The position numbers and the translations under genes were made by a program. Below are positions 8,722-63,795 of a DNA stretch of 64,000 bases, one piece after another. Position 1 is the first letter of the stretch. Every line of letters begins with the position of its first letter. Origin of the DNA: a virus; IMG/VR virus record IMGVR_UViG_3300045988_149975; one strand, 5' to 3'. The notes beneath the pieces are model-generated. The model was given only the letters and a program-made list of their open reading frames with translations, was not told the origin of the DNA and made no database searches.

Positions 8722-8723
8722 TT

Positions 8724-9116: not shown

Positions 9117-9120
9117 TACC

Positions 9121-9464: not shown

Positions 9465-9477
9465 CTCTACTCACCTC

Positions 9478-9844: not shown

Positions 9845-9850
9845 GTAAAA

Positions 9851-9889: not shown

Positions 9890-9890
9890 G

Positions 9891-10964: not shown

Positions 10965-10974
10965 TTATTATACC

Positions 10975-12840
10975 TCACTTTACTACCTCTGCTTCAATAG
11001 GTTTTTCTTCTGTTAAAAGTGCTTCAAGTATTCCTCCGCTGCGTGGATTACTACCCTTTACAACGGTACTTTCTATAGTTCCACCTTTTACTACCGTTTT
11101 ACTTACTGTTACAGGATTACCATTTACCTCATTCTGTAATTTATGTAGTTTTTCTAAATAACCCCATGCATCTTTCATTAAATCAGAAGTTCTTTCTGTA
11201 GCTATACCACCTTGTTGAGTTTCTTGTAAATATGATTTCTGTACTCTTTCCAAAGCTAAATCGGCTAAAGAAGTCATACCATCTATTACATCATCTTGAT
11301 TACGAGTATTAAACTTACGGAAAAGATTATCGTAAGCACAGATATATCCTGCTTGATATTCAGGACAATTAGTTGCTAATACGCACCTGTCACATGATAA
11401 TCTTGCTATTGCTTTAGTAGAAATTTTCTTTTGTTTTCTTAATTTTTTAATACCTGCCTTAATATTACCGTCTTTATCATATATAGGTGTAATATCATTT
11501 CTAATAAGTTCTTTTTCTACCTCATCCTTATCATAACCTGCTGTAAGCAGCGCAGGAAGAAGTTTTCCACATTCCTCTCTTGATAACTCCACCTCTGTAT
11601 ACTCTTTATCTGTAATATACTGCTGACGCTCTAATGCTTTACGTTCATTATCTAAAGGCTCATGTAAATTCTGTAAAGCCCTCTCCTGTCCATTTAAAGC
11701 GTTTTTAAAAGCCTCTTTTAAGAAGGCTATACATTTATCCTTTGTATTATATTTAACACCCTCTGCGCCAAAATATGCGCAAATTTCAACTAAATCTTCA
11801 AGCTGATAAGCATTTAAGTCTTTATTATTAATAAAGTTATAAAAATCTAATAATAAAGTAGTGCCAAAATCTTTAGGTACTTGTGTATCTATACCTGCTT
11901 CATCTAACTTATCTTCCCAATCGTTCATATCAGTTGAAAACCACTCATAAGAAGGTAACTTATACATCTTTCTATCACTCCAATACTTTTTAGGGAACAT
12001 AACCTGTTTTACATACTCTTCCATTTTCTTAAAAGCAATAGCTGATGCTTTCATAAGTTCAGTTGACGCTTCTATATCCAATAATTTAGGATTAAGTTTA
12101 AGTGCTTCTAACTTTCCACGATATTCCCCATCTTTCCATTGCTCTTTTTTCAACCTTTTAAGTTTACCACCTTCAAAATAGTTTACTTCCCCGAACTGTG
12201 AACCCGTAAGCCAACTTGTCATATCAGCAGAGAAAAAAGGATGTTTGAGTAATAATTTATTACTTCCTACACCAAAACCATGTATTTTAGCTTTATTTTT
12301 GACTGCTATCTCAAAAAGTTTATCAATATACTCAATAGGATTATCTAAACTTGCGTTCATTTCAACAGCAGAAAAACCAACATAAGGATGTTTTCTACAA
12401 AGTTTATCAAAATCCTCAAAGCTATCATCTAAATGATATACATATATTACAGGTATACCCTCTTCTTCTAAAGGCATAAAATATTCTTTACGCCATCTTT
12501 CTACAACATCTTTGCCAACAAGACTTGATAAGTCAAGTTCTACACAAGCAAAGATTAAATCTCTATGCTTTTTAACAAAGCCTATGTATTTCTTTAGATA
12601 ATCTTCCCACCACTCTACGCTTTTATCACGATATTGAGCGTCATTTATGAAAGTATGTGCGCCACTGTCAATAAGAAATTTCATTCCTTTTTTCTTGTAT
12701 AACCGTTCTTCTATCTCCTCTTTACCTCTACGCCTTATATAGTAATAAGACAATAATAAATTTTTAGTGACTGCACTTGCTATATCATAAATTTGTTTAG
12801 GCTCAACACCTGATAAAAATAATGTAAATTCGCTTTTCAT
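10975..12840 (-). CDS. dpdA: tRNA-guanine-transglycosylase-superfamily protein, candidate 7-deazaguanine DNA transglycosylase (DpdA-like)
   Basis: FLIDSGAHTF resembles the TGT DSGGFQ substrate motif. The C-terminal region has a Cys cluster (CDRCVLATNCPEYQAGYIC) like the TGT zinc site. It sits in a block with QueC and QueE. 621 aa. Confidence 0.45.
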   Translation of the reverse strand: MKSEFTLFLSGVEPKQIYDIASAVTKNLLLSYYYIRRRGKEEIEERLYKKKGMKFLIDSGAHTFINDAQYRDKSVEWWEDYLKKYIGFVKKHRDLIFACVELDLSSLVGKDVVERWRKEYFMPLEEEGIPVIYVYHLDDSFEDFDKLCRKHPYVGFSAVEMNASLDNPIEYIDKLFEIAVKNKAKIHGFGVGSNKLLLKHPFFSADMTSWLTGSQFGEVNYFEGGKLKRLKKEQWKDGEYRGKLEALKLNPKLLDIEASTELMKASAIAFKKMEEYVKQVMFPKKYWSDRKMYKLPSYEWFSTDMNDWEDKLDEAGIDTQVPKDFGTTLLLDFYNFINNKDLNAYQLEDLVEICAYFGAEGVKYNTKDKCIAFLKEAFKNALNGQERALQNLHEPLDNERKALERQQYITDKEYTEVELSREECGKLLPALLTAGYDKDEVEKELIRNDITPIYDKDGNIKAGIKKLRKQKKISTKAIARLSCDRCVLATNCPEYQAGYICAYDNLFRKFNTRNQDDVIDGMTSLADLALERVQKSYLQETQQGGIATERTSDLMKDAWGYLEKLHKLQNEVNGNPVTVSKTVVKGGTIESTVVKGSNPRSGGILEALLTEEKPIEAEVVK

Positions 12841-13808: not shown

Positions 13809-13868
13809 TTTTTTTTGCCATTTAAGTGAAATTCAAGCACATCTGATATATCCTCTTCTGTCAAAATC

Positions 13869-14375
13869 TTATTTGACAGGACAAGTGCTTGCTGCATTTA
13901 ATTTTACCTCCAAGTCTGTTAAGTTATCAACAGAACTATCATCTAAATAAACGTGGGCAAATACTTTTCTTGCTCTTAAATTTTCTATCCACCATTTCAT
14001 ACCGTCAGGGAACATTTCTTTTATACGCTCCAAATCATCATTAACAGCGTCAAACTCTAATCCCAACTTTTTACAATAAGAAACTGCCTCATCTAAACTC
14101 TTACCACACCTGCAAGTCCAAAGGATTAATTCGTTCCCTGCTTCTTTTAATTCTATGAGTTTTTCTATTACACATCTACCGCTTTTATCTTCTTTAAGAT
14201 AGCCAATATTCGGAAAAGCATTTTCTACGATAGTTCCATCAAAATCTACTGCTATAATCATTTTATACTCCTTATAAAATAGTGCGCCAAAAGGCGCACC
14301 ATAATTAACATTTACTATAGCCACAATTATTACAATAAGCACACTTACCATCAGGAATAAGAGTATACTCACCAC
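13869..14375 (-). CDS. HAD-superfamily hydrolase (nucleotidase-like)
   Basis: DxDxT motif IIAVDFDGTIV near the start of the soluble part, after an N-terminal hydrophobic segment. Overlaps the 3' end of the RNR gene. Confidence 0.5.
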   Translation of the reverse strand: MVSILLFLMVSVLIVIIVAIVNVNYGAPFGALFYKEYKMIIAVDFDGTIVENAFPNIGYLKEDKSGRCVIEKLIELKEAGNELILWTCRCGKSLDEAVSYCKKLGLEFDAVNDDLERIKEMFPDGMKWWIENLRARKVFAHVYLDDSSVDNLTDLEVKLNAASTCPVK

Positions 14376-18416: not shown

Positions 18417-19058
18417 TTACTTTACATTTAAAATTTTATGTAATTGTATACCTATCCTGCCCTTTATACTTCCGTCCAGTAAAGTTTTATTTATAAGTTT
18501 TACAGATTCCTCATTGTTATTAACTGGTGAAAGAATTATTTCTGCTTTTGTAGGATATTTCTTCAAAATCTTTTTAGCAAATTCAATATCCCTCTCATTA
18601 TCAATCACAAACTTAACTTCATCATAGGATTTTAATACAGCTAAATTATTATACTTATTAAGCCCTTCTACACCACTACATGGACATTTTATATCCATTA
18701 CATAATTATAGCTTCTTTTATAGTCATCACTATCTATATCTATAAGTCCGCTTGTTTCAATACTTACAATATATGAAAAAGATAAAAGTTCATAAATAAG
18801 CGGGTAAATATCATTCTGTAATAAAGGCTCTCCACCTGTTAAACAAACATATTTATTACCTAATTTACTTACCTCTAACATAATTTTATCCAAACTCATT
18901 AAACTATAATTCTTACCCTCACAAGCATATATTGAATCACAATATCTACAAAATGGCTTTGCAACACATCCATAAAACCTAATAAAAGTAGTAGGATAGC
19001 CCGTATACTTCCCCTCACCTTGTATTGATGAAAAAATTTCAACTACTTTCATTTTCAT
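18417..19058 (-). CDS. queE: 7-carboxy-7-deazaguanine synthase QueE (radical SAM)
   Basis: EIFSSIQGEGKYTGYPTTFIRFYGCVAKPFCRYCDS matches the QueE signature (IFxSIQGEG...FxRxxGCNLxCxxCD). 213 aa. Confidence 0.75.
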   Translation of the reverse strand: MKMKVVEIFSSIQGEGKYTGYPTTFIRFYGCVAKPFCRYCDSIYACEGKNYSLMSLDKIMLEVSKLGNKYVCLTGGEPLLQNDIYPLIYELLSFSYIVSIETSGLIDIDSDDYKRSYNYVMDIKCPCSGVEGLNKYNNLAVLKSYDEVKFVIDNERDIEFAKKILKKYPTKAEIILSPVNNNEESVKLINKTLLDGSIKGRIGIQLHKILNVK

Positions 19059-19847: not shown

Positions 19848-19875
19848 ATTATAACATATTTTGATAAAAATTCAA
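19848..19875 (-). promoter_or_regulatory. candidate promoter for the SpoVS-like gene
   Basis: Minus strand TTGAAT (19870..19875), 16-nt spacer, TGtTATAAT (19848..19856). Confidence 0.35.
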
Positions 19876-20405
19876 CATTGATTTATAATTTTTTTCTCAT
19901 CAATAATAGAGAAAAAATCATTAAATTTCAACATTACAAAATCTTGTGACTTAAACTTTCCTTTTACCTGACTTTGGTGCATTATAAGTACAGGTATTTT
20001 TCCATTAATGCAATCATTTTCTGCCTGTTTAAACCATTCCTGAACGGAAGTCCATCCATTCTTATGATTTTTAAGTTCTAAATGTAAGAGAAAATTTACA
20101 TTATCAGTATAACATACTACATCTCCTCGCAAAGCATTATTCTCAATTCCCTTTAAATAACCACCACTTGATGCTGTTCTACCGAATTTAAGTAAAGGAA
20201 AAATTTTATTCAACTCATTGACTATTTTCCTTTCAAAATTTGCACCTTTAGTTTTAGAGGATTTACCTAAATTGCTTTTTTTAATTTGTTTTTCTAATTT
20301 CTCTATTTCAGGACTGTCAGGAGCATTTTCTTTCAAGAAAACTAATTTATCTTTTAATAAATCAACCCTACGCATTAAACTTTCCGCTCCTATTACTATC
20401 TTCAA
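19872..20405 (-). CDS. VRR-NUC-type PD-(D/E)xK nuclease
   Basis: C-terminal half reads GDVVCY...FLLHLELKN...SVQEWF, matching the VRR-NUC G-PD...E-K...Q..W pattern. Confidence 0.45.
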   Translation of the reverse strand: MKIVIGAESLMRRVDLLKDKLVFLKENAPDSPEIEKLEKQIKKSNLGKSSKTKGANFERKIVNELNKIFPLLKFGRTASSGGYLKGIENNALRGDVVCYTDNVNFLLHLELKNHKNGWTSVQEWFKQAENDCINGKIPVLIMHQSQVKGKFKSQDFVMLKFNDFFSIIDEKKIINQC

Positions 20406-21567: not shown

Positions 21568-22434
21568 CTAATTTCCCCTTTCACACAAATCTTTAAATGC
21601 ACACCATTTACAATAACGTGTATTATCCTTTTTAGGAATGATTCCTTCTGCTACATACTTATTAATCTCCTTACAACGATTAAGCAAATCACTAATTAAA
21701 TCTCTATCCCATTCAAAGGGAAATTCCTTCAATTCTTGTGTATCTTTACATTCATAAAGAAAAATAATCTTTCTAATAGGTTTAGGATATTCCTCTAAAA
21801 GTTCAAGAGTTTTATCAAAGATTGCCATTTTCTTTTCCAACTTCTGCTCTTTTGTATATTTTCTACCATCCTCTAAAAAACTCTCTAATTTAGTTTTATA
21901 AAGATTTCTTAACCATTCCCCATCACCTAAAAGAACTTTTTTACGCATTTCATCTAAACAATACATATATAAACTTGCTTGAAGTTTATGTTCAGGTTTT
22001 GCATCAGTTAAAGCATTAAAACCGTTACTATTAATACTCTTAATTTCAAGTATTGATAACCTGTCACTATCTTTAAGTAAACCATCTGTATTACCCATTA
22101 CTTCATATTCCACATTAAATACAGGTGCCTCATCAAGTAAAAGTACGCCTGCTTCTTTTAAATAACCTTGTAATCTCTCATGTACAAAAGTGCCATTATT
22201 TAAAATGCGGAGGGAACGTGGGTCATCATTAGCATTAGTCTTTTTAGCAAAACAACGGTTATAATAAGAAGCCCTCATGCAACCTCCTATACCACTTGGA
22301 CTATTCCATCCATGCCCCCTATCCTCTGTTCCGCTATCCTTCATTAAAAGCATATCAATAGCAGGAATTAACAGGCTGTTCTTTGTAAGTGTATTTAAAG
22401 AGGGAACACTTCCTACTACTTTAAACTTCTTCAA
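21568..22434 (-). CDS. Cas4/RecB-like PD-(D/E)xK exonuclease with Fe-S Cys cluster
   Basis: N-terminal Cys (CMRASYYNRC) and C-terminal CKWCAFKDLC cluster characteristic of Cas4-family phage exonucleases. 288 aa. Confidence 0.55.
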   Translation of the reverse strand: MKKFKVVGSVPSLNTLTKNSLLIPAIDMLLMKDSGTEDRGHGWNSPSGIGGCMRASYYNRCFAKKTNANDDPRSLRILNNGTFVHERLQGYLKEAGVLLLDEAPVFNVEYEVMGNTDGLLKDSDRLSILEIKSINSNGFNALTDAKPEHKLQASLYMYCLDEMRKKVLLGDGEWLRNLYKTKLESFLEDGRKYTKEQKLEKKMAIFDKTLELLEEYPKPIRKIIFLYECKDTQELKEFPFEWDRDLISDLLNRCKEINKYVAEGIIPKKDNTRYCKWCAFKDLCERGN

Positions 22435-22880
22435 ATTACTGCTACCTCCTTAAAATCCTCTAATCTTGTTATCTGCCAAACTGCACCACCGTTGAATCTA
22501 TACAAATATAAATACCCCACATCAATATAATTTAAAATATCAGCAGAAAGTTTAGAACTCTCCTTGCAATCTAATACATCACTCTCATTATAGTAATTAT
22601 AAAAATCATAAGCCCTATAAGCAATATAATCTTTATCTTTAACTCTTATTGCAAGTAAGGGTATTCTATTACATTTAAGTGCCTCATTCTCAATCTTGCT
22701 TAAAATCTTCCCCTTTAAAATGTAATAATCTTTTTCAGTTGCTTTACACTCAATTAAATAATCATCTGTTACTACATCACCTTTTGCAAAATATAATGCG
22801 CCTGAAGCTATTACTGTTTTTCCACCTAAACTTTCTGCTATAAATGTTTCATGCTTATTACTTAACTTCTTCGGTTTCAT
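22431..22880 (-). CDS. putative PD-(D/E)xK nuclease / resolvase-like protein
   Basis: DVVTDDYLIECKATEKD fits a D...E-x-K core. Weak call. Confidence 0.3.
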   Translation of the reverse strand: MKPKKLSNKHETFIAESLGGKTVIASGALYFAKGDVVTDDYLIECKATEKDYYILKGKILSKIENEALKCNRIPLLAIRVKDKDYIAYRAYDFYNYYNESDVLDCKESSKLSADILNYIDVGYLYLYRFNGGAVWQITRLEDFKEVAVI

Positions 22881-23190
22881 CTTTCACATCCTCTGGTTTC
22901 CAAAAACAACAAAATGTTCTACCTTCCTCTGTTACCATATCAAAAGGGGTAACAAAAGAATTTTGGCAGATGTCATTTTCGTCATAATATTTACAACTCT
23001 CACACCTTGAAATGAAATGGGCAGCTTTCATTAAGGCTACATAAAGCCTTGTATCATAGCCTACATGAAAATCCAATACCTCACCTCCTTTATTGTAACT
23101 CTTGATAAGCAAATTCACCAAAATATTTGAGTTCACCTGCTCTCCTTGCTTGTTTAGCCTCTTCCTCTGTTGTATAACACCATAGTTCAC
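22858..23190 (-). CDS. hypothetical protein
   Basis: 110-aa ORF with Cys pairs (CESCKYYDENDIC...CCFW). Confidence 0.4.
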   Translation of the reverse strand: MNYGVIQQRKRLNKQGEQVNSNILVNLLIKSYNKGGEVLDFHVGYDTRLYVALMKAAHFISRCESCKYYDENDICQNSFVTPFDMVTEEGRTFCCFWKPEDVKDETEEVK

Positions 23191-24266
23191 ATTCTTTTCA
23201 CAATTTCAGCAAACAATGATTCATTTTCCCTTAAAAGACGGACTAAATTATCTTGACCTTGTGCAAGCATTTGGGAATCCATGTAATACCACGCTCCCTT
23301 ACGCTCTATAATACCTTTAAGAACAGCTAATACAACTAACTCTTTAGCGGTATCAATAGAACCTTTAGGAAGTAATCCATCATCAGTATATAAATCGTAT
23401 TCACCTGTTGTAAAAGCAGCACCTAATTTATTTTTCTGAATTTTCCATTTAATTACACGCCCTACAATTTTAGCATTAGTACCAGTGCCTTCTTTAATGT
23501 AATCGCCTGCCCTTAAACGGATTTCGATACTATTAGTAAACTTTTGGCTATTTCCTCCAGGAACAGTAGTAGGATCACCATAACCACCAATTTTATCCCT
23601 AAATTGATTTATGGATAAGACAGTAGTAGGCAGTTTACCATTCCTCTCCAAAGTATTATTAAAACTTTGAAATTTACCGTGATAAGTCTGTAATTTCAAT
23701 GGTTTAATACCCATTTGAGCAGTATCAGAAATATCTGTTTCAATATACTTTGTGGGTAACATGGCAGCAATAGAATCTATCACAATAAATTCCACACCCG
23801 CTTTTTGCAATTCTACTGCAATATCTAATGCTTGTTCCATACCTTCAGGTTGACAAAATAGTAATTTATCATTATCAATACCATTCTGCGCTCCCCATTC
23901 CTCACTATAACTACCACTTTCAATTTGAATTAAAGCAGCTTGTAGGGGTATATCACCATCATCAGCTACTACCTCATATTCAAAATTGCCTTTAGTTATT
24001 TTCTTCTTATACATATTCTGTACGGCAGCAATGGCTTTATAAGCAAGTAAAGATTTACCACTACTCTCTTGCCCTGCAAGTGTAATATATCGCCCCGAAG
24101 GTAAGCCACCACCTAATGCGTCATTAAGTGATACACTACCTAAAGGAATTTTGAAATTCATTTCATCATTTATATCTGCGCCCTTACGGATGGCATTTAC
24201 GCCAAAGCGTTTGTTTATATCTTTTATTAGTGTATTTATATCTGCCATAATTTCCTCCTTTATCAT
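23187..24266 (-). CDS. RecA/UvsX-like recombinase
   Basis: Walker A GQESSGKS within a RecA-like core (LPSGRYITLAGQESSGKSLLAY). 359 aa. Confidence 0.7.
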   Translation of the reverse strand: MIKEEIMADINTLIKDINKRFGVNAIRKGADINDEMNFKIPLGSVSLNDALGGGLPSGRYITLAGQESSGKSLLAYKAIAAVQNMYKKKITKGNFEYEVVADDGDIPLQAALIQIESGSYSEEWGAQNGIDNDKLLFCQPEGMEQALDIAVELQKAGVEFIVIDSIAAMLPTKYIETDISDTAQMGIKPLKLQTYHGKFQSFNNTLERNGKLPTTVLSINQFRDKIGGYGDPTTVPGGNSQKFTNSIEIRLRAGDYIKEGTGTNAKIVGRVIKWKIQKNKLGAAFTTGEYDLYTDDGLLPKGSIDTAKELVVLAVLKGIIERKGAWYYMDSQMLAQGQDNLVRLLRENESLFAEIVKRM

Positions 24267-26861: not shown

Positions 26862-27587
26862 TTAAAGTCTTTTAAGTCCAGTAGCTTGCTGTACTTCTTT
26901 AGGCTCTTCTACTTCAGTTTCACCATAAGGTACAAACAAATTCTGTAATACACCCATAAAACCTTCAGTCTTTGCAATCTCCTTATATTTTTCAGGCAGT
27001 GATTCAATAATCTTTTCTTTAGCTTCCTCTGTTAAAGGTGCTTTAGACCAGTACAGAGGGTCTTTACCTGCGGGGCAATCATCTACCCTATCAAAGTTAT
27101 AAGGATTTTTCTTACCATTCTTACTTACATAATATGCTCTATCAAGTAAACCATACTTTTCTTTATTACGCTGAATAGCTGCAACATCAGAAGTACCTCT
27201 CACCATTACTCTTACTTGGTCAGTATACTCAATAACTTTACCAGTAGGTACGCCATTTACTACCTCATCTTTTGTAGTTACAGTACCATCAAGTACAAGG
27301 AAGGCAGATTTAATGGAGCGTTTATTAAGTTTACTTGCGTCAAAACTATCAGGCTGCTGACAACCTTTGCAATCAGGTTCACCAGTGCATACAAATACAC
27401 GAGGTACAGTACCTACCTTAATAGTATGGGCGTAAAAAGAAAGCGGCTCATCAGTTAAGAAACGCATAAGTTTCTCTTCCCCATCTTTTACATAAAAATC
27501 ATAAATACCAGTTCTACCTGAATTTGCTTTTGCTTCTTCACTCATTTTATTAACTGCGTCAAAACCTTTTTGAAAAAAACTTTTCAC
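26862..27587 (-). CDS. possible single-stranded-DNA-binding or annealing protein
   Basis: Sits between primase and polymerase. Has a Cys cluster CTGEPDCKGCQQPD. No firm motif; call is mainly positional. Confidence 0.3.
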   Translation of the reverse strand: MKSFFQKGFDAVNKMSEEAKANSGRTGIYDFYVKDGEEKLMRFLTDEPLSFYAHTIKVGTVPRVFVCTGEPDCKGCQQPDSFDASKLNKRSIKSAFLVLDGTVTTKDEVVNGVPTGKVIEYTDQVRVMVRGTSDVAAIQRNKEKYGLLDRAYYVSKNGKKNPYNFDRVDDCPAGKDPLYWSKAPLTEEAKEKIIESLPEKYKEIAKTEGFMGVLQNLFVPYGETEVEEPKEVQQATGLKRL

Positions 27588-28564: not shown

Positions 28565-29155
28565 TCACATAACCACCTCCTGTTTTATTCTAAAAAATAC
28601 TTTTACGCCATCAATTACAGAACATCCTCTGTTACTACTAATAGTATGCCCTCTTATCATAGCGTGTACTATTGACTTATCTTTATTAGGAAATAAGGTA
28701 CGAGAAGCAGCCTTACTGCTCTTAAAAGTAGCTAATACCTCATTACTTTCCACAGAAACCATCTCAACTGGTTTTTCAAATAACCTATGTAACTTTTTAG
28801 CGGATATTCTTGCTTTCTCACGAACATTCTCTCTTAAACCGATATTCCACGAATGTAATAAATTATCTTTGTTTTCTATCCACTCTAAATTTTCAACATG
28901 GTTATTTAATTTATTACCGTCTTTATGATTTACTTGTGGTAAATTTTCGGGGTTAGGTATAAATGCTTCTGCTACTAAACGATGTACCCTTTTAGGATAA
29001 CACTTACCATCTTTAGCTAATGCTACCTGTAAATAACCCTTTGTAGTTGTGTTTGCCATCAAACACCTCTCTTTATTATACTTATGAGATATTACTACCC
29101 CTTCATCTGTAACAGTATAATCAGGAAAATCTTTTACAATAGCTTCTATAAGCAT
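28565..29155 (-). CDS. HNH homing endonuclease (free-standing)
   Basis: GYLQVAL...VHRLVAEAFIPNPENLPQVNHKDGNKLNNHVENLEW (HNH_3). Close paralogue of 63128..63658. Confidence 0.8.
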   Translation of the reverse strand: MLIEAIVKDFPDYTVTDEGVVISHKYNKERCLMANTTTKGYLQVALAKDGKCYPKRVHRLVAEAFIPNPENLPQVNHKDGNKLNNHVENLEWIENKDNLLHSWNIGLRENVREKARISAKKLHRLFEKPVEMVSVESNEVLATFKSSKAASRTLFPNKDKSIVHAMIRGHTISSNRGCSVIDGVKVFFRIKQEVVM

Positions 29156-37261: not shown

Positions 37262-38551
37262 TTATGCCCCTAATTTTTCCACAATCTCATCTTTTGTAAA
37301 ACCAAGGTTTTTATAAAGACTCCGTGGATTTTCTACATATTCGTATTTTAAAATGGTAGTCTTACCATTTTCTTCCATTGTTTCATATTTAACTGTATCT
37401 GTATTCTTGCCTGCTTTTTCTACCTCACCTGCATAAATCCAAATATAATCATCAAATAATAGATTACCCCATAAAGGCTTCCAAACTTCCTCGTTGAAAT
37501 TTTCTGCCATATAATAGTAATCCTCTTTAGAACTTAATACTTTTGGTATACCTCTCATTAATAACTCAATCCTTTCTTTAACAGAATCTAATTTTATACT
37601 TTTACGAAAATTATAGGTATTTGCCCACTTCATCCAACCTTCTATACTGGCTACCATACCTCTTGCATAGTCCAAATCTAAATCAGCAGTCTTTAATAGA
37701 CTATCCAATTTTCTAAACCTGCGTTTTATCCTTTTTGCTGTACTCTTTCTTAATAAAACACAGTTGTTAGGAAATGTCCTATAACCAAGAAAGTCTACAC
37801 CTTGCGTTATAGGAAATACATTACTTTTACTTAATAACAGGTTTAACTTATCATAAGCAAATACCTTCGCTTTTTCAGCTACCTCATGTAACTCCTTCTT
37901 ATCATTACCGAAAATTATAAAATCATCACAATACCTTATATATGCACTACATTTTAAATCATACTTTATATAAGTGTCTAATTCATTCATGTATAGATTA
38001 CCAAACCACTGTGAAAGATAATTTCCAATAGGTACGCCCGCCTTTCTATGACCAAATTCCTCTACATATCTTTCAAGTTTTCCACGCATTATATCAGCAT
38101 CTTTACGCCCTTCAAAATTCTTCAAATAACCTATATTAGCTTCTCTTGTTGCAAGGCTATCTATTATTATATCAAGAATACTTAATAAATCTTTATCTTT
38201 AATCTTTTTACGCAATATTATTTTCAATATTTCATGGTCAATATTTACATAAAATTGTGAAATATCAAGTTTAGCACAATACTTATACTTTCTTACATAT
38301 TCAGAGCATTTTATCATTCCCTTATGCTGCCCCTTACCTTTACGACAAGCATAACTATCATATATAAATAAACTATCCCAAATAGGCTCTAACACATTCA
38401 TTATAGCATGATGTACTATTCTATCAGGATAATATGGAAGTACATAAATTAAACGCAATTTAGGCTCATACATTGAATAAATCCTATAAACGGAGTTCTT
38501 ATAATTTCCATCCATTAAATCTTTTTGTAATGATAATAGGTTAGCTTCCAA
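37262..38551 (-). CDS. reverse transcriptase of a diversity-generating retroelement
   Basis: RT motifs in order: RIYSMYEPKLRLIYVLPYYPDRIVHHAIMNVLEP (1/2), LDISQFYVNIDH (A), KAGVPIGNYLSQWFGNLYMNELD (B'), YIRYCDDFIIFG (YxDD). 429 aa. Lies 3' of a TR/VR pair. Confidence 0.8.
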   Translation of the reverse strand: MEANLLSLQKDLMDGNYKNSVYRIYSMYEPKLRLIYVLPYYPDRIVHHAIMNVLEPIWDSLFIYDSYACRKGKGQHKGMIKCSEYVRKYKYCAKLDISQFYVNIDHEILKIILRKKIKDKDLLSILDIIIDSLATREANIGYLKNFEGRKDADIMRGKLERYVEEFGHRKAGVPIGNYLSQWFGNLYMNELDTYIKYDLKCSAYIRYCDDFIIFGNDKKELHEVAEKAKVFAYDKLNLLLSKSNVFPITQGVDFLGYRTFPNNCVLLRKSTAKRIKRRFRKLDSLLKTADLDLDYARGMVASIEGWMKWANTYNFRKSIKLDSVKERIELLMRGIPKVLSSKEDYYYMAENFNEEVWKPLWGNLLFDDYIWIYAGEVEKAGKNTDTVKYETMEENGKTTILKYEYVENPRSLYKNLGFTKDEIVEKLGA

Positions 38552-38604: not shown

Positions 38605-38910
38605 TTAATTCAGCAATTTTAAGATTTTCAATATCAATAATTCTATTCCAAAGATTTCCATATCTTCGTATTTGAAAAACACCCTCTCTATTAAAAAGTT
38701 TAACAAATTGGCACTCTTTATAAAGAGTGCCAAAATGCTATTTAGGTATTTAGGTAAATTGATTTTCGCCTTAACTACTAACCCCTTTACCATCCTGTAA
38801 TGTGTTTCTGCTTTCGCAGAGGATAGAGATTCAGCCGAAGGATTAGCTTTATACCTATTGTATGATACCTTCGTATCACTACAGCTACGCTCGCCGTTGT
38901 TAGAGTTCAC
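38605..38910 (-). CDS. questionable ORF in the DGR spacer
   Basis: 101-aa ORF overlapping the TR 3' end and a 12-bp-stem hairpin (38707..38732). This region is normally a structured non-coding RNA in DGRs. Confidence 0.2.
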   Translation of the reverse strand: MNSNNGERSCSDTKVSYNRYKANPSAESLSSAKAETHYRMVKGLVVKAKINLPKYLNSILALFIKSANLLNFLIERVFFKYEDMEIFGIELLILKILKLLN

Positions 38911-38992
38911 ATTCGCTGAAGCATTATTGACATTAACTGAACGAGAACTGCAACTCGAACTGTTATTCCAGTTACTGCCGAGTTTCGCCTTT
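38877..38992 (-). repeat. DGR template repeat (TR)
   Basis: 116 bp aligning with 39151..39266. About 32 mismatches, every one at a plus-strand T of the TR, which is an A on the transcribed minus strand, changed to C, A or G in the VR. Confidence 0.8.
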
Positions 38993-39124
38993 ATAACCTC
39001 TACCCTTTTAGTTGCAACTATTTATATATATAAATTGGGGGTACGAGATGGTTGTCTACATTACCTCTCCAAGTTTATATCAACTTAAACACCACATTAA
39101 CTTGAATTAATGGGCTACGCCAAC

Positions 39125-40186
39125 TCAATTCCCAAGTTTATGGAGCGGCTCACCACAGCCACGCCCGCCGCTGAAAGAGTCCACAAGCGCCGAAGCACCA
39201 TTGACATCAACCGAACGAGAACCGCAACCCGAACCGCCACCCCAGAGACCGCCGAGCCTCGCCCTGTACAAAGTACCATAGCTTCTACCATAAGACTGGT
39301 CATCTACACCACTATTATATACAGAATCATTCCAACCACTTGAACCGTTTACACCAACATCACTTGCCCATTGCCATAAGAAACCACAAGCATCTTCAAG
39401 CCCATAATTACTTATCATTCTTCTGCCCGCTGTATCAACGTGTCCACCAGTTGTATTGGCATCTGTACTACCTTGTATATTAGTACCTTCATTACTTCCT
39501 TTTGCCGCCACCTGAAACTCATATCTCCACGGCAATCTTTTCTTTATATCAGCAAGTCTTTCTACAAACTGTTCACCATGAAATTTCTTTGTAGAAGCAC
39601 CATCTGCTGTTGTTCCACCATTTACACTCACAAGTTTACTTCCATTCCACGAGTTTAAGTAAATGTCCATCCATATATCTACTTCAGGAATATAAACCAT
39701 TCCTTCAGGTGAACATTTTGGGCGATGAATTAAATCCCATACTGATTGTGGTAATATATCACCTGCTACATAACCACTTAATGTATGCCCGCTTATCGTA
39801 CCCACATTTGTACATAAACAATGGAAACCACCTATTTTTCTACTATTATCTGCATTATAACCATTAGGTACAGTAGAATTTAAAGATAATACAAAATCTA
39901 ATCCATTATTTTCTACTGCATACACATAAACATCTTTACCGTTTCTATTTGCCAAACTTAAAGACAATGTTTTATCCATATCAGTAGAGTATACATTATC
40001 ATTTATTCTTAAAACCATCCCCGCAGGTATTGTTACAGTAGTCTTATTTGTAGTCATTAAACTTTTTCTATTAAAATAAGTATCAATATACTTTGCCAAA
40101 ATTTCTTCACTAAAATTTTCACCATCTATTAAAGAGTTTAAATATGCTCTAATTGTTTCTACCCTTAAATTATTTAATTTATCCAT
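39125..40186 (-). CDS. DGR target (variable) protein, probable receptor-binding tail protein with a C-type-lectin/FGE-like C-terminus
   Basis: 353-aa ORF in the tail-fibre region. The C-terminal Gly/Cys-rich segment (GGLWGGGSGCGSRSVDVNG...GGRGCGEPLHKLGN) carries the VR. Confidence 0.65.
   Translation of the reverse strand: MDKLNNLRVETIRAYLNSLIDGENFSEEILAKYIDTYFNRKSLMTTNKTTVTIPAGMVLRINDNVYSTDMDKTLSLSLANRNGKDVYVYAVENNGLDFVLSLNSTVPNGYNADNSRKIGGFHCLCTNVGTISGHTLSGYVAGDILPQSVWDLIHRPKCSPEGMVYIPEVDIWMDIYLNSWNGSKLVSVNGGTTADGASTKKFHGEQFVERLADIKKRLPWRYEFQVAAKGSNEGTNIQGSTDANTTGGHVDTAGRRMISNYGLEDACGFLWQWASDVGVNGSSGWNDSVYNSGVDDQSYGRSYGTLYRARLGGLWGGGSGCGSRSVDVNGASALVDSFSGGRGCGEPLHKLGN
39151..39266 (-). repeat. 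DGR variable repeat (VR) at the 3' end of the target gene
   Basis: See TR. Lies inside the last 50 codons of ORF 39125..40186, ending about 25 nt before its stop. Confidence 0.8.
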
Positions 40187-41460: not shown

Positions 41461-41529
41461 TGGACAATCTCCAAAGGTACTAATGGTTGGGCGAGGGAGA
41501 GTAGCACAGGATTCACAATTCAATGGGGG
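41461..41529 (+). repeat. inverted copy of the tail-fibre junction (encodes WTISKGTNGWARESSTGFTIQWG)
   Basis: 31 bp (41462..41492) identical to the reverse complement of 42572..42602 in gene 42322..43755. The next 37 bp encode the same peptide with different codons (version 1: GGATTCACAATTCAATGGGGG). Confidence 0.7.
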
Positions 41530-41750
41530 AGAGGCACAACATCTTCAAATTGGAATACAAAAATTTTTTTAATAGAAGTTTTAGTAGTATTTATACTATA
41601 AATTTAGATATTTATAATCCTAATGGTAGTCCTGCAAGTGGGGTTTATCAGGACAGCGGCGGTATTACGTATTTTGATAATGATGGTTTTTACGGCGGTT
41701 TTTCACGAGTTGGTTACACGTTTTTTTGGATAGCAGTAGGTATATCTTAA
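41530..41750 (+). other. silent tail-fibre C-terminal cassette D (promoterless, +1 frameshift in an A5T7 run)
   Basis: Encodes ...FNRSFSSIYTINLDIYNPNGSP...GYTFFWIAVGIS*, homologous to the A, B and C tails (FPRxFxT motif, W-x-A-x-G-I-S end). The reading frame changes between the junction copy and the cassette at AAAAATTTTTTT (41559..41570). Confidence 0.55.
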
Positions 41751-41751
41751 T

Positions 41752-41801
41752 GTTTGCTGAAATGCAATTTTTAAAAATTTAAAAATTGCATTTCAGCAAA
41801 C
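41752..41801. repeat. 50-bp perfect palindrome (23-bp stem, 4-nt loop)
   Basis: GTTTGCTGAAATGCAATTTTTAA-AAAT-TTAAAAATTGCATTTCAGCAAAC. Sits between the convergent ends of cassettes D and B. No flanking U-tract. Confidence 0.9.
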
Positions 41802-41821
41802 AAATTAGCTTATTCCAATGG

Positions 41822-42070
41822 CTATCCAATTACATCTATTAAACCACGGGCTACCCCCATATCTTGTTGATATAAGTAAAATCCACTTTTATCTACAGTT
41901 CTTACTTGAAATTCTCCATCATATCTTGAGGGATTATTAGTATCAGTATTTACTAAACTTACCATCATAGTATAATAAGTAGTAAAAGTTCGAGGAAAAT
42001 TGAATTTACCAATTTGTTGTTCAGATGCACTATTAGTGCCTACTACTTGCCCCCATTGAATTGTGAATCC
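41822..42070 (-). other. silent tail-fibre C-terminal cassette B (no start codon, preceded by an in-frame stop)
   Basis: Reverse complement encodes *GFTIQWGQVVGTNSASEQQIGKFNFPRTFTTYYTMMVSLVNTDTNNPSRYDGEFQVRTVDKSGFYLYQQDMGVARGLIDVIG*. The junction uses DNA version 1 (plus 42050..42070). Confidence 0.65.
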
Positions 42071-42101
42071 TTAAAAATTCACTTTATAAACCCCATTTTA
42101 T

Positions 42102-42329
42102 ACTGGTTTTACTATACAATGGGGTTCAACTGGTACTTTAAGCGGCACTGCAACAATTTCTTTTCCTCGCACATTTTCTACTGTTTATCAAGTTATACCT
42201 GTCGGAAATGTAGAAGAAACAAATGAAAACTGGGGTTTCCCATTAAATGAACGTCCTACAACAAAGAATTTTAAAGCTGCACATTGGTATAGTGGTCAGT
42301 GGAGATACATTGCAGTAGGAATTAGCTAA
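42102..42329 (+). other. silent tail-fibre C-terminal cassette C (no start codon, preceded by an in-frame stop)
   Basis: Encodes TGFTIQWGSTGTLSGTATISFPRTFSTVYQVIPVGNVEETNENWGFPLNERPTTKNFKAAHWYSGQWRYIAVGIS*. The junction uses DNA version 2 (GGTTTTACTATACAATGGGG, 42105..42124). Its stop lies in the palindrome GGAATTAGCTAATTCC shared with gene A. Confidence 0.65.
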
Positions 42330-43755
42330 TTCCAATAGCATACCATAATAAATATCCTCCTGTAGTATACATTTGACCCCAAAGCCAATTAAAATTTGTT
42401 GTAGAAAAAGATTTTATACGGGAAGTATATTTTTCGTCATTAGTATTTAAACCTGTTTGTGTTAAATATACTCCATATAAAGTTGTAAACTTTCTGGGAA
42501 AAGTTGTAGTACCGGCTACTGCTTTGCCTGTAGTTCCCCATTGTATAGTAAAACCAGTAGATGATTCACGTGCCCAACCATTAGTACCTTTGGAGATTGT
42601 CCATCCATTATTAGTAATACTACCACTTCCGCCGCCGATTCCTGCACCATCAGCAGGGTCAGGTGAAGGCTGTGTACTTCCTGTTGTACCTGCTACTTTA
42701 CATACCAAAAAACAACCTGCATATTGCTTACCTACAAGTTTACGCACTGTATCTCTTGTAACAGTTTCATTAGGCTGCCAATATCCAGTATCTACATCTG
42801 TTAAAACTCTTTTCCATACATAATTAGTATCTTCACTTGCTGTATCAATAGAAAATTGCAATACATAATTTACTGCATACCCATTTCCACTCTCTGTTGT
42901 AATCTCATAAAAAACATGATTAGTATGCGCTCTTACTACTGTCAAATTACCAGTTTGAGAAGGATAATTATATGTATTACCTTCCCCACCAATTCCCACT
43001 ATGAGCATTGAATTTGCAGGTAAAGCATTACCTATTGCATAAGGTGAATTATCTAATACTCCCCCGCTTAACCCTATTTGACTTAATTGACTATAAGTCT
43101 TAATATTTGTTAAATCATTAAGCGATTTTTTATTTACCACATCATAATCATTTACAGGGCTTTTATCTGTCTGTAAACTTTTAAATAATGTAGGGATTAC
43201 ATTCATATCACTACCTAAAGTTACTAAATTCGTAACAGATGTATTTACCACAGGGGCAATCCACTCTTCTGTTGTATAACCACTTACCCATAAAGTATCT
43301 GCATTACCAGTTGTTAGTTTTAAGCCCGCATATTTTATATTATTATATGTAAAAGTACAAGGCTCTGCTTTGGCATCATCACTATTTGTAGTATTAAAAT
43401 TTACATTACATTCATTAGAATTGTGTACTTTTTGTAAATTAATGTCACAATTTACCGCTGCTGTACTACCATTTTTAGTAGACATTACTACCTTCAATGA
43501 GCAAGCAGAGAATTTTGCAATATCTATATTATCTAATACTGCTAAAGGCAATACCTGTGTAGTACCTGTTCCTAAAGTTGTTTCATGAATTAAGAATTTA
43601 GCATTAGTTCCTTTAAACTGTACAGGCATTACCTGCCAACGAGAAGCATCATCTACATATTCTTTTAAAGAATTAAAATTCTCATTTAATAAAGGGGCAA
43701 GTTCTGTATCTACATATTCTTCCCCTGTAAAAATGTGTAAATCTCCTAAAGCCAT
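42322..43755 (-). CDS. tail fibre / receptor-binding protein with an exchangeable C-terminal domain (expressed copy, cassette A)
   Basis: 477 aa. C-terminus ...WTISKGTNGWARESSTGFTIQWG-TTGKAVAGTTTFPRKFTT...GGYLLWYAIGIS*. The junction peptide and 31 bp of DNA recur in inverted orientation at 41461..41529 and 42102..42124. Confidence 0.7.
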   Translation of the reverse strand: MALGDLHIFTGEEYVDTELAPLLNENFNSLKEYVDDASRWQVMPVQFKGTNAKFLIHETTLGTGTTQVLPLAVLDNIDIAKFSACSLKVVMSTKNGSTAAVNCDINLQKVHNSNECNVNFNTTNSDDAKAEPCTFTYNNIKYAGLKLTTGNADTLWVSGYTTEEWIAPVVNTSVTNLVTLGSDMNVIPTLFKSLQTDKSPVNDYDVVNKKSLNDLTNIKTYSQLSQIGLSGGVLDNSPYAIGNALPANSMLIVGIGGEGNTYNYPSQTGNLTVVRAHTNHVFYEITTESGNGYAVNYVLQFSIDTASEDTNYVWKRVLTDVDTGYWQPNETVTRDTVRKLVGKQYAGCFLVCKVAGTTGSTQPSPDPADGAGIGGGSGSITNNGWTISKGTNGWARESSTGFTIQWGTTGKAVAGTTTFPRKFTTLYGVYLTQTGLNTNDEKYTSRIKSFSTTNFNWLWGQMYTTGGYLLWYAIGIS

Positions 43756-45577: not shown

Positions 45578-46249
45578 TTACTCCCCCTTATACGCAAATT
45601 CACCAAACAACTCTTCTCTTAACTCTTTAGCGACTTTTGCTGCTTCCTCTTCAGTGTCATAACTGCCACCATAAAAACGCTTACCATCTTTGCTACAATA
45701 CGCTTTCCATTTACCCGTTTCCTTATTATAAGAATAACCCTTACGCCTATGATTCATATTGTTTTGCCTTACTGTACAAATTCTTAAATTGCACTTCCTA
45801 TTATCTGCTTTATCGTGGCTAATATGGTCAACTATCATTCCTTCAGGGCAATCCATAATAAACCTGTTTAAACGAATATGTGTATGTGTAGTTTGCCAAT
45901 AACCTTTAGAACCTAATGTAAAATAATGCGGTTTTACTTTCTCAATATCCTCCGTATCTATTAAAGTATAATTTCCCTTATTATCATACATTTTTGTAAC
46001 TTCACCATCTATATAATATGTGTTATAAGCCCTGTTCTTTAAAGAAATTGCCTTTCTCATATTACAACCACAAGAAGTTGTACTACCTTGTCTTAAAGAA
46101 CGATATATAACAGGTTTTACATTTCCACAATCACATTGACATAAAACCTGCGCTTCAGTATTGCCTGACTTTGTAATCTTGTCAGGCAATAATCCAATAA
46201 TTTCCATTCTACCATATCTTTCCCCAATTTGAGGAATAATCTTTCTCAT
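45578..46249 (-). CDS. HNH homing endonuclease with AP2 DNA-binding domain (free-standing, inside the tail cluster)
   Basis: HNH core VDHISHDKADNRKCNLRICTVRQN. AP2-like C-terminus GYSYNKETGKWKAYCSKDGKRFYGGSYDTEEEAAKVAKELR. Confidence 0.7.
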   Translation of the reverse strand: MRKIIPQIGERYGRMEIIGLLPDKITKSGNTEAQVLCQCDCGNVKPVIYRSLRQGSTTSCGCNMRKAISLKNRAYNTYYIDGEVTKMYDNKGNYTLIDTEDIEKVKPHYFTLGSKGYWQTTHTHIRLNRFIMDCPEGMIVDHISHDKADNRKCNLRICTVRQNNMNHRRKGYSYNKETGKWKAYCSKDGKRFYGGSYDTEEEAAKVAKELREELFGEFAYKGE

Positions 46250-61771: not shown

Positions 61772-62975
61772 TTACTTTATGTAAGCGGGGGCGTACTTCT
61801 ATGAGTGTCTTTACACTCGACTGCCCCTCTTATGTTCACACATAAGGTCTGACTATCTCTTTACCCCTTTCTTATGTTCGAGGTATCTCGTGTATAGTCG
61901 ATAGACTTTTTTCAGATAATTTATAACTCATTGATTTTGGTATAAATTCTTTTATGTAGTCGCAAAACTTTGTAAAACTTTTTGAAGGTATTCTTATCAT
62001 CGGATAACCACATTCAAGCTGAACATAGGTTTCAATTTTAATAATTTCATTTAAAGAATTGCTCAATAACTGACACTCCTCAATAGTAAAACAACAAGTT
62101 GCTATCTTACCCCAATTTCCTTTACCTTTACTACCATCATCTGCATACCATATAGCGATTGATAAAGGATTGAGCATTTCCTTAATGTTATTAGGAATAA
62201 TCTTTGTTTTACCTTTATAGAACATTTCCCTTAACTGTTTTATATCTCCAAAGGCTTTTGTCCTTTTCCTAACCGATTGATAACCTTCTTTAGTTTTTCT
62301 ATAATAACTACTGCTTATATCATTGCCAAAGAAACTTGCCTTATAGTTTAAGTAATCTTCTTGTTTAAGCGAATGACTTAAATAAAGTACCCTTCCATCA
62401 AGATAACCGTCACCTAAAATGCTACCAATTACAACACTTCTTTGATTATCTGTTAAGTGCTTATAATCACTTTGTACAGCAGATATGCCATAATGTGTTA
62501 GCCATTTTGTAACTGTACTATTCTTTACATTAAACTTTTCGCCGACATCTTTCTTCCTACCACCATTTTGAAAAACCTCTAATATCTCCTCTTTCGGTGG
62601 TATATAAGCAAAATGTTCAAAAGTTCCTAACTTATACTCTTTAACAAGTCTTTTTATAACTTTTAAACTTACACTAAAATGTTTTGCAACTAATTTCTGA
62701 CTTTTTAAGTCATTATATACTTTTTGTAAATCTTCTTTTGCAATATAAATCTTTTTCATTATAAATTACCTTCCTTTAGTACGGTATTACCCCTCTGGGG
62801 TTCACTTTCTATATACATAGTATTATAGGCTTTTTAAAGCCAACCGTTTAGCGAGATGCTTTGTACTTGTTTTTATTCAAGCACAACGGCAAAATCTACC
62901 GTTAAATAACTGTTCAGGCGCACCATAGTTGCTCGCATTACAGCACTATTACTTTCACCCACTATGGTAAGGGTT
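61772..62975 (-). mobile_element. group I intron (B) carrying a LAGLIDADG ORF; boundaries approximate
   Basis: Minus-strand RNA 61930..61800 contains R-like CGACUAUAC, a P8 hairpin, S-like GAGAUAGUC (P7 GACUA/UAGUC) and a P9 hairpin CCUUAUGUGUGAACAUAAGAGGGG. 54-nt block 61808..61861 repeated at 63018..63072. Confidence 0.5.
61872..62759 (-). CDS. LAGLIDADG homing endonuclease (intron-encoded)
   Basis: Two LAGLIDADG motifs (IGSILGDGYLDG and IAIWYADDGSKG). 295 aa. Confidence 0.75.
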   Translation of the reverse strand: MKKIYIAKEDLQKVYNDLKSQKLVAKHFSVSLKVIKRLVKEYKLGTFEHFAYIPPKEEILEVFQNGGRKKDVGEKFNVKNSTVTKWLTHYGISAVQSDYKHLTDNQRSVVIGSILGDGYLDGRVLYLSHSLKQEDYLNYKASFFGNDISSSYYRKTKEGYQSVRKRTKAFGDIKQLREMFYKGKTKIIPNNIKEMLNPLSIAIWYADDGSKGKGNWGKIATCCFTIEECQLLSNSLNEIIKIETYVQLECGYPMIRIPSKSFTKFCDYIKEFIPKSMSYKLSEKSLSTIHEIPRT

Positions 62976-62979: not shown

Positions 62980-63795
62980 ACTAATATCTCTATTAGCGGG
63001 GCAACTGCTTCTCTAAAGTGTCTTTACACTTGAGTCACCCTCTTATGGTTTCCCATAAGGTTAGACTATCTCATCCCCCGATTTTTTACATCGGGGGCTT
63101 CGTCCATAGTCGTTGCAAGGGTATCAATTAAACATATTCAAACCTATACGTTCCTAATAATACATTATTTCTTAACAATGCAGAAGTTATTGATGGGTAT
63201 TTAAGATTGAGTTTCTCTGACGCTTCTCTCGTACTATTAAACTCAAACTTTTCTCCTGTTTTTATATTCTCACATTTAATTTTGCGACTTCTATGTTTTA
63301 TACCATTTTCTCTCGCCGCTTTGCTATGTGCTTCTGTCATAACATTTATCAGACCATGTGCATAAGCGTGTCTAATATTATAACTTGAATCACACCATTC
63401 TAAATTCTCAACGTGGTTATTTAACTTGTTACCATCTATATGATTTACTTGCGGTAAATTATCAGGGTTAGGTATAAAATTCATTGCTACAAGCCTATGA
63501 ATTTTCTTTGAATGTTTACCATCCTTATCATATAAGTTTACATATAAATAACCGCCTTTGTTGACAGTTTGAACTAAAAACTTTTGTGTAAATGTGGAAT
63601 ATACCCTTCCATCATCATAAATATAATAATTTTCAAAACCTTTAATTTTTCGTTTCACTTACGTTACTCCTCTCTTTATGTTTAATCTTAACCTTCTCAC
63701 AGGATTGGCATGACTTTTCAGTTTTAGCTTTCCCTGTTTTCACGAAGTTTAATCGAGTACATTACTGTACAAGTGGACTAATGCTAATGGCTTTA
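62980..63795 (-). mobile_element. group I intron (A) carrying an HNH ORF; boundaries approximate
   Basis: Minus RNA 5' part has P4/Q-like ACAGGGAAAGCU...AAUCCUGUG (63700..63660). 3' part (63127..63010) has R CAACGACUAUGG, P8 CCCCCGAUGUAAAAAAUCGGGGG, S GAUGAGAUAGUCUAACC and P9 CCUUAUGGGAAACCAUAAGAGGG. Confidence 0.5.
63128..63658 (-). CDS. HNH homing endonuclease with NUMOD4-like N-terminus (intron-encoded)
   Basis: GFENYYIYDDGRVYS (NUMOD4-like) plus HRLVAMNFIPNPDNLPQVNHIDGNKLNNHVENLEW. GTG start after RBS GAGAGGAG. Paralogue of 28565..29155. Confidence 0.8.
   Translation of the reverse strand: MKRKIKGFENYYIYDDGRVYSTFTQKFLVQTVNKGGYLYVNLYDKDGKHSKKIHRLVAMNFIPNPDNLPQVNHIDGNKLNNHVENLEWCDSSYNIRHAYAHGLINVMTEAHSKAARENGIKHRSRKIKCENIKTGEKFEFNSTREASEKLNLKYPSITSALLRNNVLLGTYRFEYV

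Follow-up and report, generated by a model that had tools for sequence, protein, structure and literature searches.

The 64,000-nucleotide viral sequence IMGVR_UViG_3300045988_149975 (this whole stretch is called the window here) carries, beside a tail-fibre gene, an array of three silent 3' ends for that gene. An earlier note, made from the sequence alone, had proposed that inversion exchanges these cassettes with the expressed end, so that one fibre can bear different receptor-binding tips. We find that alternative 3' parts are fused in frame to the constant 5' part by inversion in the related arrays L005, L019, L016 and L015. Judged from these comparisons, the array is to all appearances a working inversion switch. 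As to what drives it, we lean towards a nested inversion switch that depends on homology between short inverted repeats rather than on a dedicated invertase.

Layout of the fibre gene and its cassettes

Every gene in the window lies on the minus strand, and the GC content is about 32%. The fibre gene ends in the expressed tip A, and the three silent tips C (plus strand), B (minus strand) and D (plus strand) sit between it and a gene for a CBM_5_12 protein. The junction at which the tips begin exists in two synonymous DNA versions, v1 and v2. The elements of the locus are as follows, with lengths in nucleotides (nt) or amino acids (aa).

42322..43755, minus strand: tail-fibre gene and expression locus, an open reading frame (ORF) of 477 aa; the constant shaft is residues 1 to ~382 and tip A is residues 385-477
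42325..42535, minus strand: variable part of tip A, the tip expressed in this phage; L005, L015 and L019 carry it inverted and silent, and it is expressed on the 700-aa fibre P0002
42318..42333, no strand: 16-nt palindrome GGAATTAGCTAATTCC containing the overlapping stop codons of tips A and C, which converge here
42105..42329, plus strand: tip C, silent, startless and intact (variable part 42125..42329); expressed in L005/P0009 and L019/P0057 at 98.6% aa identity
42072..42100, no strand: central spacer with stop codons in both directions, bounded by the v2 arm of C and the v1 arm of B
from 42070, minus strand: tip B, silent and startless, with a 1-nt deletion near 41865 (variable part 41805..42049); its intact expressed homologue is P0049/L015, at 87.5% aa identity
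41751..41802, no strand: perfect hairpin with 25-nt arms and a 2-nt loop between the convergent tips D and B, kept behind B or D in L015 and L016
41530..41750, plus strand: tip D, silent and startless, with a 1-nt deletion in the T-run 41564-41570; intact homologues (P0021/P0030/P0036/L016) are expressed, at 84-86% aa identity, and the tip is silent in L015
40689..41399, minus strand: gene for the 236-aa CBM_5_12 protein, the other flank of the array

The places and orientations that the earlier note had given for the four cassettes are upheld as a layout: A and C converge, D and B converge, and B and C stand head to head, with 34 nt between their junction codons and stops there in both directions. 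Written with IR for inverted repeat, the array order is IR1-v2-[A> <C]-v2'-spacer-v1-[B> <D]-v1'-IR1'. B, C and D are startless, as had been stated. A promoter and a start codon are available only to the cassette fused to the constant 5' part, which means that a single tip is produced at any one time. The 69 nt before D (41461..41529) encode the same 23 aa, WTISKGTNGWARESSTGFTIQWG, as the expressed gene. Two details needed correction. The end of B had been placed at 41822, where the stop is the consequence of a frameshift; the true WIAIGIS* stop is at 41805-41807. The FPRxF motif had been ascribed to all tips, and D has FNRSF instead. The hairpin at 41751..41802 is probably a two-way terminator; a promoter and terminator consensus scan was uninformative in this AT-rich DNA and did not call the hairpin with its 25-nt arms.

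Inverted states among related phages

More than 150 homologues of the fibre occur in public metagenomes, on contigs of up to ~101 kb (P0001, whose longest contig is 101,513 bp, is identical to the fibre protein). Their first ~380 aa are 88-98% identical and their C-termini mosaic; among the matches listed, 59 of 120 have the same junction near the end, with diverse tips beyond it. All four types of tip are found expressed in the protein database: A in P0002; C in P0009, P0057 and P0060; D in P0021, P0030 and P0036; and B in P0049.

The multiple-inversion switching proposed in the earlier note, which had also suggested looking for inverted isoforms, is borne out by natural isomers in the genomes of related phages. 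L005 and L019/L020 follow the order of the window in the flanks and have positions 42101-42559 reversed at 97.6% identity, with the C/A breakpoints inside IR3; C is fused to the constant part and A lies silent in C's former place. The whole array is flipped in L016-18, where D is expressed and both the central core and the outer junction are inverted, the state that recombination at IR1 gives. L015 has the order B> <D, C> <A with B expressed, and its four tips match those of the window at 92.6-97% nucleotide identity; this is exactly the state of the window after inversions at IR1 and IR2. The same four tips thus occur in three permutations, precisely those that inversion can reach, and the segments flip singly or in groups among relatives (C/A alone; the whole array; the whole array plus D/B). 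The v2'-spacer-v1 core is kept in L005, L015, L016 and L019 and is inverted along with the whole array in L015 and L016. A four-junction architecture with alternating orientation is present in at least six arrays of differing tip content.

Fibre C-termini of this phage family are exchanged at several conserved joints, and L001 (10001-11998) has a tail-collar-type end and no cassette array.

Inverted repeats and recoded junctions

We searched the whole 64-kb window for exact inverted repeats of at least 18 nt at a spacing of 60-3000 nt. Three pairs were found, all at tip junctions, and because these are the window's only such repeats, chance is excluded. The arms, together with a recoded linker, are listed here.

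42572..42603, minus strand: IR1 arm at the expression site, coding WTISKGTNGWA; a 32-nt exact inverted repeat with 41461-41492
41461..41492, plus strand: IR1 arm at the far array end, 32 nt, pairing with 42572-42603
41493..41507, plus strand: recoded linker, the v1 version of ARESST, between IR1 and the v1 junction
41508..41529, plus strand: IR2 (v1) arm before silent D, 22 nt, flanking D/B together with 42050-42071
42050..42071, minus strand: IR2 (v1 junction, AGGATTCACAATTCAATGGGGG) arm before silent B; a 22-nt exact inverted repeat with 41508-41529
42101..42124, plus strand: IR3 (v2) arm before silent C, 24 nt, with the C/A inversion breakpoints of L005/L019 inside it
42536..42559, minus strand: IR3 (v2 junction, TACTGGTTTTACTATACAATGGGG) arm at the expression site; a 24-nt exact inverted repeat with 42101-42124

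IR1 flanks the whole array and is found at both array ends in L015, L016 and L019 too. The earlier note had described the 69 bp before D as an inverted copy of the constant region and the junctions as exactly conserved, and both descriptions hold for the protein and fail for the DNA. Compared with the expressed gene, the 69-nt copy has 32 identical nt and then 16 mismatches in 37 nt, every one synonymous. The junctions are likewise kept as protein, with DNA identity only between partners: A with D via IR1, D with B via v1, and C with A via v2. Linker plus junction encode the same amino acids as 42534-42571, yet 11 of 12 degenerate codons differ (CGT/AGG, TCA/AGT and TCT/AGC among them); in a post hoc test against random draws from the phage's own codon usage, this difference between v1 and v2 has P = 0.009, and the identity of 8/8 degenerate codons in the adjoining IR1 has P = 0.002.

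Junctions of inverted partners have exact runs of 22-25 nt in six arrays. Junctions in direct orientation have 8 nt in common in the four window-type arrays, in which one module always has the v1 junction and the other always v2, and 13-14 nt in two more (L035 and L036, with fibres ~61% identical). This pattern fits, without proving it, an addressing by homology length in which a threshold of ~20 nt leaves inverted partners above it and direct neighbours below.

Every junction contains CAATGGGG (CATTGCAATGGGG in distant relatives; 13 nt in L035 and L036), a motif that consists of the Q-W-G codons, and apart from it the three repeat pairs are unrelated in sequence. The offset of the identical block around these codons varies by array (13+8+1, 16+8+0, 5+8+9 and 17+8+0); in L035 and L036 it extends into the tip (5+8+9) instead of lying upstream of the QWG codons. 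IR1 has no CAATGGGG in register. The same is true of a fourth, unrelated inverted repeat of 39 nt farther up the fibre gene of L015 (11200-11238 / 13499-13537, coding SIHSALPINSVLEY), which pairs the expressed gene with a silent 260-aa stalk-plus-tip and would exchange that unit.

None of the three repeat pairs is an imperfect palindrome. When compared with what we take to be the gix/hix consensus, they show no 26-bp dyad site with a 2-bp core. A hix/gix-like palindrome in the v2 junction was considered and rejected, as its GGTTTT resembles a half-site only and has no symmetric partner; XerCD/dif-like sites were rejected too, the repeats bearing no resemblance to what we take to be the dif sequence.

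Among the more distant arrays, L036 has five cassettes, one of them in direct orientation behind its 22-nt direct repeat. A perfect 16-nt palindrome, CCCCATTGCAATGGGG, belongs to both inner junctions in L035 (8376-8410) and L036 (8929-8964), so that LQWG is read from it in either direction.

Homology or a dedicated recombinase

In the homology-driven switch that we favour, a crossover between the two v2 copies would swap A and C, one between the two v1 copies would swap D and B, and one between the IR1 copies would reverse the entire array, placing D at the expression site along with its own recoded ARESSTGFTIQWG. The exchanges would occur by homology-dependent recombination of the identical 22-32-nt inverted repeats with no dedicated invertase, and the agents would be the phage's RecA, Holliday-junction resolvase and nucleases, or host equivalents. 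The two junction versions would be held synonymous but non-identical, such that only inverted partners share enough homology; owing to this non-identity, cassettes in direct orientation would neither recombine with each other nor delete. Candidate genes are present in the window.

21568..24266, minus strand: general-recombination genes (nuclease, resolvase and RecA homologue), which may act in trans
23187..24266, minus strand: RecA homologue (Pfam PF00154, 6e-40)
22431..22880, minus strand: Holliday-junction resolvase (PHROG 2002, 2.5e-20)
21568..22434, minus strand: PD-(D/E)XK/Cas4-like nuclease (Pfam PF12705)
19872..20405: second PD-(D/E)XK nuclease, PDDEXK_15
26862..27587: single-stranded DNA-binding (SSB)-like protein, a weak match

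A fuller version of this proposal is that a virulent-type phage operates a programmed multi-state host-range switch without any invertase, using general phage-encoded recombination of the RecA/resolvase type, with the junction recoded to favour inversions and never deletions ('homology addressing') and a diversity-generating retroelement (DGR) adjoining. We put this forward tentatively, as a combination that falls somewhat short of an even chance.

The earlier note had seen no invertase in the window, and this was confirmed by Pfam scans: none of the 40 ORFs, every recombinase-sized ORF included, is a serine or tyrosine recombinase (PF00239 and PF00589 types). PHROG scans of window ORFs without a Pfam family gave no recombinase, and a motif and phmmer search for a Hin-like protein, with a query that we take to represent Hin, reached a best E-value of 0.56. 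A Hin/Gin- or Rci-type recombinase elsewhere in the genome, as the earlier note had considered, did not come to light. No such family occurs among the genes called in stretches 1-16565, 45088-67262 and 72555-93666 of the L015 genome (ZHAN23-2 scaffold_81, 93,666 bp), the rest of which was matched to scanned window regions by gene order and distance from the fibre gene, without alignment. No serine or tyrosine recombinase was called around the arrays of L015, L016, L019, L035 and L036, and none was found in two close relatives beyond both window ends. With no recombinase found, no dyad symmetry, and CAATGGGG as the only sequence that the tip junctions all have in common, the switch cannot be assigned to the Gin or Rci type. 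Of the likeness to the Mu G segment and to shufflons that had been drawn earlier, the in-frame fusion and the multi-segment inversion hold; neither a recombinase nor a site clearly of either type was found.

Several considerations weigh against homology as the driver. Repeats of 22-25 nt are about as short as RecA-type recombination accepts, so that rates might be very low. The CAATGGGG motif in every junction could be a common crossover core, and the 22-nt direct repeat of L036 is an exception to the rule of no direct homology. The recombinase searches cover recognisable families only, with ~27 kb of this phage's genome unseen directly; several phage ORFs without a family match could hide a recombinase of a new type, and the host could supply one. 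Finally, a single tyrosine recombinase, PsrA, is responsible for inversion at three different repeat pairs within hsdS genes (PMC7096588), so differing repeats do not exclude a single site-specific enzyme.

In the strongest alternative, the switch is the same and a dedicated but unrecognised site-specific recombinase, from the host or from an unmatched phage ORF, acts on the core CAATGGGG with asymmetric arms, in the manner of Rci on sfx or of PsrA. We think this rather unlikely, though it deserves to be taken seriously. It would account for a core common to all junctions, but the Q-W-G codons explain that core as well, and it is out of register in IR1 and in the 39-nt repeat of L015. The rather uniform length of the partner repeats, 22-25 nt, speaks for it, but they have no dyad symmetry, and the identical block moves relative to the core between arrays. 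Described phage tip shufflons all use a recombinase (PMC6109161, PMC13596623), PsrA shows that one enzyme can act on three repeat pairs (PMC7096588), and the unmatched ORFs leave room for such a protein, but no PF00239 or PF00589 protein was found in the window, the three stretches of the array-bearing genome, or the relatives. A further point in favour of the enzyme is that heterogeneity is apparently common enough to break assemblies, as described below; a further point against it is that the synonymous recoding of v1 and v2 would be purposeless for a reader of a common core.

Tip domain and integrity of the cassettes

Each cassette is a whole Gp53-like_C domain (PF21882, profile positions 3-83 of 84), which Pfam places at residues 399-475 of the fibre protein. 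The cut-off of 24.9 bits is passed by A (33.3), C (25.7) and repaired B (38.5) but missed by repaired D (19.5). The structure prediction suggested in the earlier note was informative for tip A, whose AlphaFold (AF2) model has a predicted local distance difference test (pLDDT) score of 86.5. Foldseek matched this model to the receptor-binding C-terminal domains of R2/R1 pyocin fibres (6ct8/6cl6, template modelling (TM) score 0.73-0.74, ~30% identity) and to AP22 gp53 (4mtm, TM 0.66), with weaker matches to H-type lectins. The exchanged unit is predicted from this model to be a ~90-aa lectin-like receptor-binding domain of the Gp53-like_C type.

The cassettes had been presented as alternative tips, and this is true of A and C, which are intact; B and D each have one -1 frameshift here. 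In D, the C of AAAATTTTCTTTAAT is lost within the T-run 41564-41570. In B, one A is lost near 41865 and the WIAIGIS* end is out of frame. The expressed homologues of D and B (P0030, P0036, P0021 and P0049) read NTKIFFNRSF and YLYQQRYSSGAWFNRCNWIAIGIS. Both frameshifts are also present in assemblies L037 and L038 of the same phage, and because these align over both sites without gaps, the frameshifts are real. The working choice in this phage is therefore A or C, and in relatives all four tips are open.

Such decay is what one would expect if there were no working switch and the array had arisen incidentally, as co-infecting phages shuffled modules at conserved joints, and consisted of rare historical inversions and decaying leftovers. 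The high mosaicism of fibre C-termini in this family and the existence of L001, a relative without any array, agree with that explanation, which we nevertheless judge improbable. Three silent cassettes are frameshifted (B and D here, A in L005), so switching must be too infrequent to keep every copy intact. Against this, of the 20 silent startless cassettes in seven arrays, 17 keep a full-length open frame of 64-90 codons in 32%-GC DNA, which is hard to explain without expression from time to time. The ratio of nonsynonymous to synonymous substitution rates (dN/dS) among cassette alleles points both ways, with ~1 for D and 0.1-0.2 for C, the counts being too small to separate relaxed from diversifying selection. 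Leftovers of shuffling also would not be expected to keep a four-junction alternating architecture in at least six arrays with differing tips, or to show four tips in three permutations, all of them reachable by inversion.

Contig ends point in addition to mixed orientations within a sample. In ERZ28618332, a second assembly of the same phage (100% identical over the common sequence; assembly graph with k-mer length k=55), scaffold_814 (L002) stops at 42017 and a 597-bp scaffold (L038) spans 41475-42071, with an overlap of exactly 55 nt. The free ends of L002 and L038 each lie 33 = 55-22 nt from an IR2 arm. Since a 22-nt repeat alone cannot break a k=55 graph, the breaks fit minority reads with D/B inverted, which would join the outer left flank, via the arm, to the start of B. 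We infer the presence of both D/B orientations within that sample from these ends only, and coexisting strains could also yield them. Further, the contig end falls on the final base of the v1 arm in L003 and one base beyond it in L005, and L020 ends 30 nt outside the outer junction arm, which equals 55 minus the 22-nt arm and 3 nt common to the alternative tips if k = 55, as we assume.

Non-reciprocal gene conversion from silent donors, as in pilE/pilS or vlsE, would require no inversion and would suit promoterless silent copies with a conserved 5' junction. It is very improbable here. A donor cassette left in place is excluded by the reciprocal exchanges between genomes, in which expression of C goes with A inverted in C's former place between the same flanks, and a conversion tract would have nothing to end on at the 3' side, where GIS* is the only conserved homology. 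An assembly artefact, a chimeric or mis-joined repeat region, might be suspected from the several contigs that break in the array region, but can be dismissed given the same gap-free arrangement in L002, L037 and L038, homologous arrays from many samples, and repeats shorter than assembly k-mers.

Comparison with known inversion systems

Choosing fibre C-termini by inversion is a known strategy, represented by the Mu G segment, the P1 C segment, p15B Min, Rin and BV01-like phages (PMC6109161, PMC13596623, PMC9881135). In the Mu G segment with Gin and the P1 C segment with Cin, inversion decides which of two convergent fibre 3' parts is fused to the constant 5' part, and host range changes with it; the layout of the C/A module is exactly this one. 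Mu and P1 have a serine invertase gene beside the segment, 26-bp imperfect-palindrome sites, and an enhancer with Fis, and a second gene (U/U') is swapped too. In contrast, no invertase was found here, the perfect repeats of 22-32 nt lie in coding sequence without dyad symmetry, a domain of ~70-85 aa alone is exchanged, and there are three independent repeat pairs.

Another parallel is offered by Min of the plasmid-prophage p15B and by the R64 shufflon with Rci, where, as here, segments invert singly or together, one gene has several C-termini, and sites alternate. Min uses one serine recombinase and the R64 shufflon one tyrosine recombinase, Rci, each with one common site (mix and sfx, respectively) and an adjacent recombinase gene. 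The present array differs from both in its three heterospecific repeat pairs with a common core of only 8 nt and in that no recombinase gene was found.

The Rin shufflon of Bifidobacterium prophages and the shufflon of BV01-like Phocaeicola phages resemble this array in that receptor-binding C-termini of gut phages are shuffled and isomers differ between genomes. Those systems belong to temperate phages and have a flanking recombinase gene and a short common motif, the 11-bp rix in Rin (PMC6109161) and the 10-bp TGGGAGAACT in BV01-like phages (PMC13596623), and their isomers occur among related genomes and within populations (PMC6109161, PMC13596623). Here, by contrast, no integrase or invertase was found, the phage has its own replication and recombination genes, and the repeats are pair-specific. 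Three different inverted-repeat pairs inside coding sequence also shuffle the domains of one protein in the pneumococcal cod/SpnIII hsdS inverton with PsrA, which has a tyrosine recombinase gene in the locus and acts on a restriction specificity subunit, not a phage fibre (PMC7096588, PMC7672463). Anabaena cyanophages, lytic-type phages that also exist as genome isomers, have an invertible region of ~30 kb with repeats of 400-700 nt and no coding-sequence switch (bioRxiv 10.64898/2026.02.14.705889); the 22-32-nt repeats here fuse protein domains in frame.

Overall, this is the same kind of switch as Mu, Min and Rin in function, but it has nested heterospecific repeats and a small exchanged domain, and it is found in a large phage without an integrase. 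To our knowledge, tail-fibre inversion switches are otherwise known only from temperate elements with their own invertase.

The finding places an inversion switch in a widespread family of gut phages of ~95-101 kb with no detectable invertase or integrase. The design of its repeats reads as a rule set, in which inverted partners are identical and direct neighbours are synonymously scrambled. Should general recombination be responsible, no dedicated enzyme would be needed for programmed inversions to evolve, and searches anchored on recombinases would miss such switches. The repeat-length threshold of phage recombination would then be measurable directly in nature, and host-range predictions and assemblies would need to allow for a multi-state fibre tip.

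The neighbouring retroelement and genome context

The DGR that the earlier note had placed on the neighbouring gene is corroborated by a reverse transcriptase, an Mtd-like target and adenine-biased mismatches.

37262..38551, minus strand: DGR reverse transcriptase (RVT_1)
~38872-38995: DGR template repeat
39125..40186, minus strand: DGR target, Mtd-like (Mtd second domain)
~39146-39270: DGR variable repeat

Template adenines account for most mismatches between the two repeats: 46 of the 86 substitutions in the local alignment (A>G 31, A>T 11, A>C 4), and nearly all of them in its well-matched 3' part. By these features the DGR is bona fide, and the phage carries two different diversifiers on two adjacent receptor-binding genes. 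It offers a natural system in which two diversification strategies can be compared in one virion.

Elsewhere in the window, genes between 10975 and 19058 suggest a DNA modification of the 7-deazaguanine type.

10975..12840: queuine tRNA-ribosyltransferase/DpdA-like protein, 621 aa
13025..13603: QueC-like protein
18417..19058: radical-SAM protein

In the GenBank phage collection the fibre region has no DNA or protein match, and the DNA polymerase is only 32% identical to that of Bacillus phage BCD7, so this collection offers no annotated relative. Species-representative bacterial genomes hold no fibre homologue, hence no prophage copy or host clue, and a tRNA scan found none. Homologues of RtcB at ~50% identity come from Clostridia, a weak hint at the host. 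A low-GC Firmicute would be the probable host. Two assemblies (ends of L010 and L011) both stop ~200 nt inside the left window end (~199-224), which a terminus, a repeat or local heterogeneity could explain.

The genome also bears a heavy load of selfish elements. Inteins interrupt the C5-methylase, the ribonucleotide reductase and, outside the window (L012 4348-6759), the terminase, and free-standing HNH, HNH-AP2 and LAGLIDADG endonucleases are present too. The HNH-AP2 gene, absent from L015, L016 and L019, lies two genes upstream of the fibre gene. The positions in the window are these.

2428-4443, 14305-17184, 28565-29155, 45578-46249, 61872-62759 and 63128-63658: inteins and free-standing endonucleases

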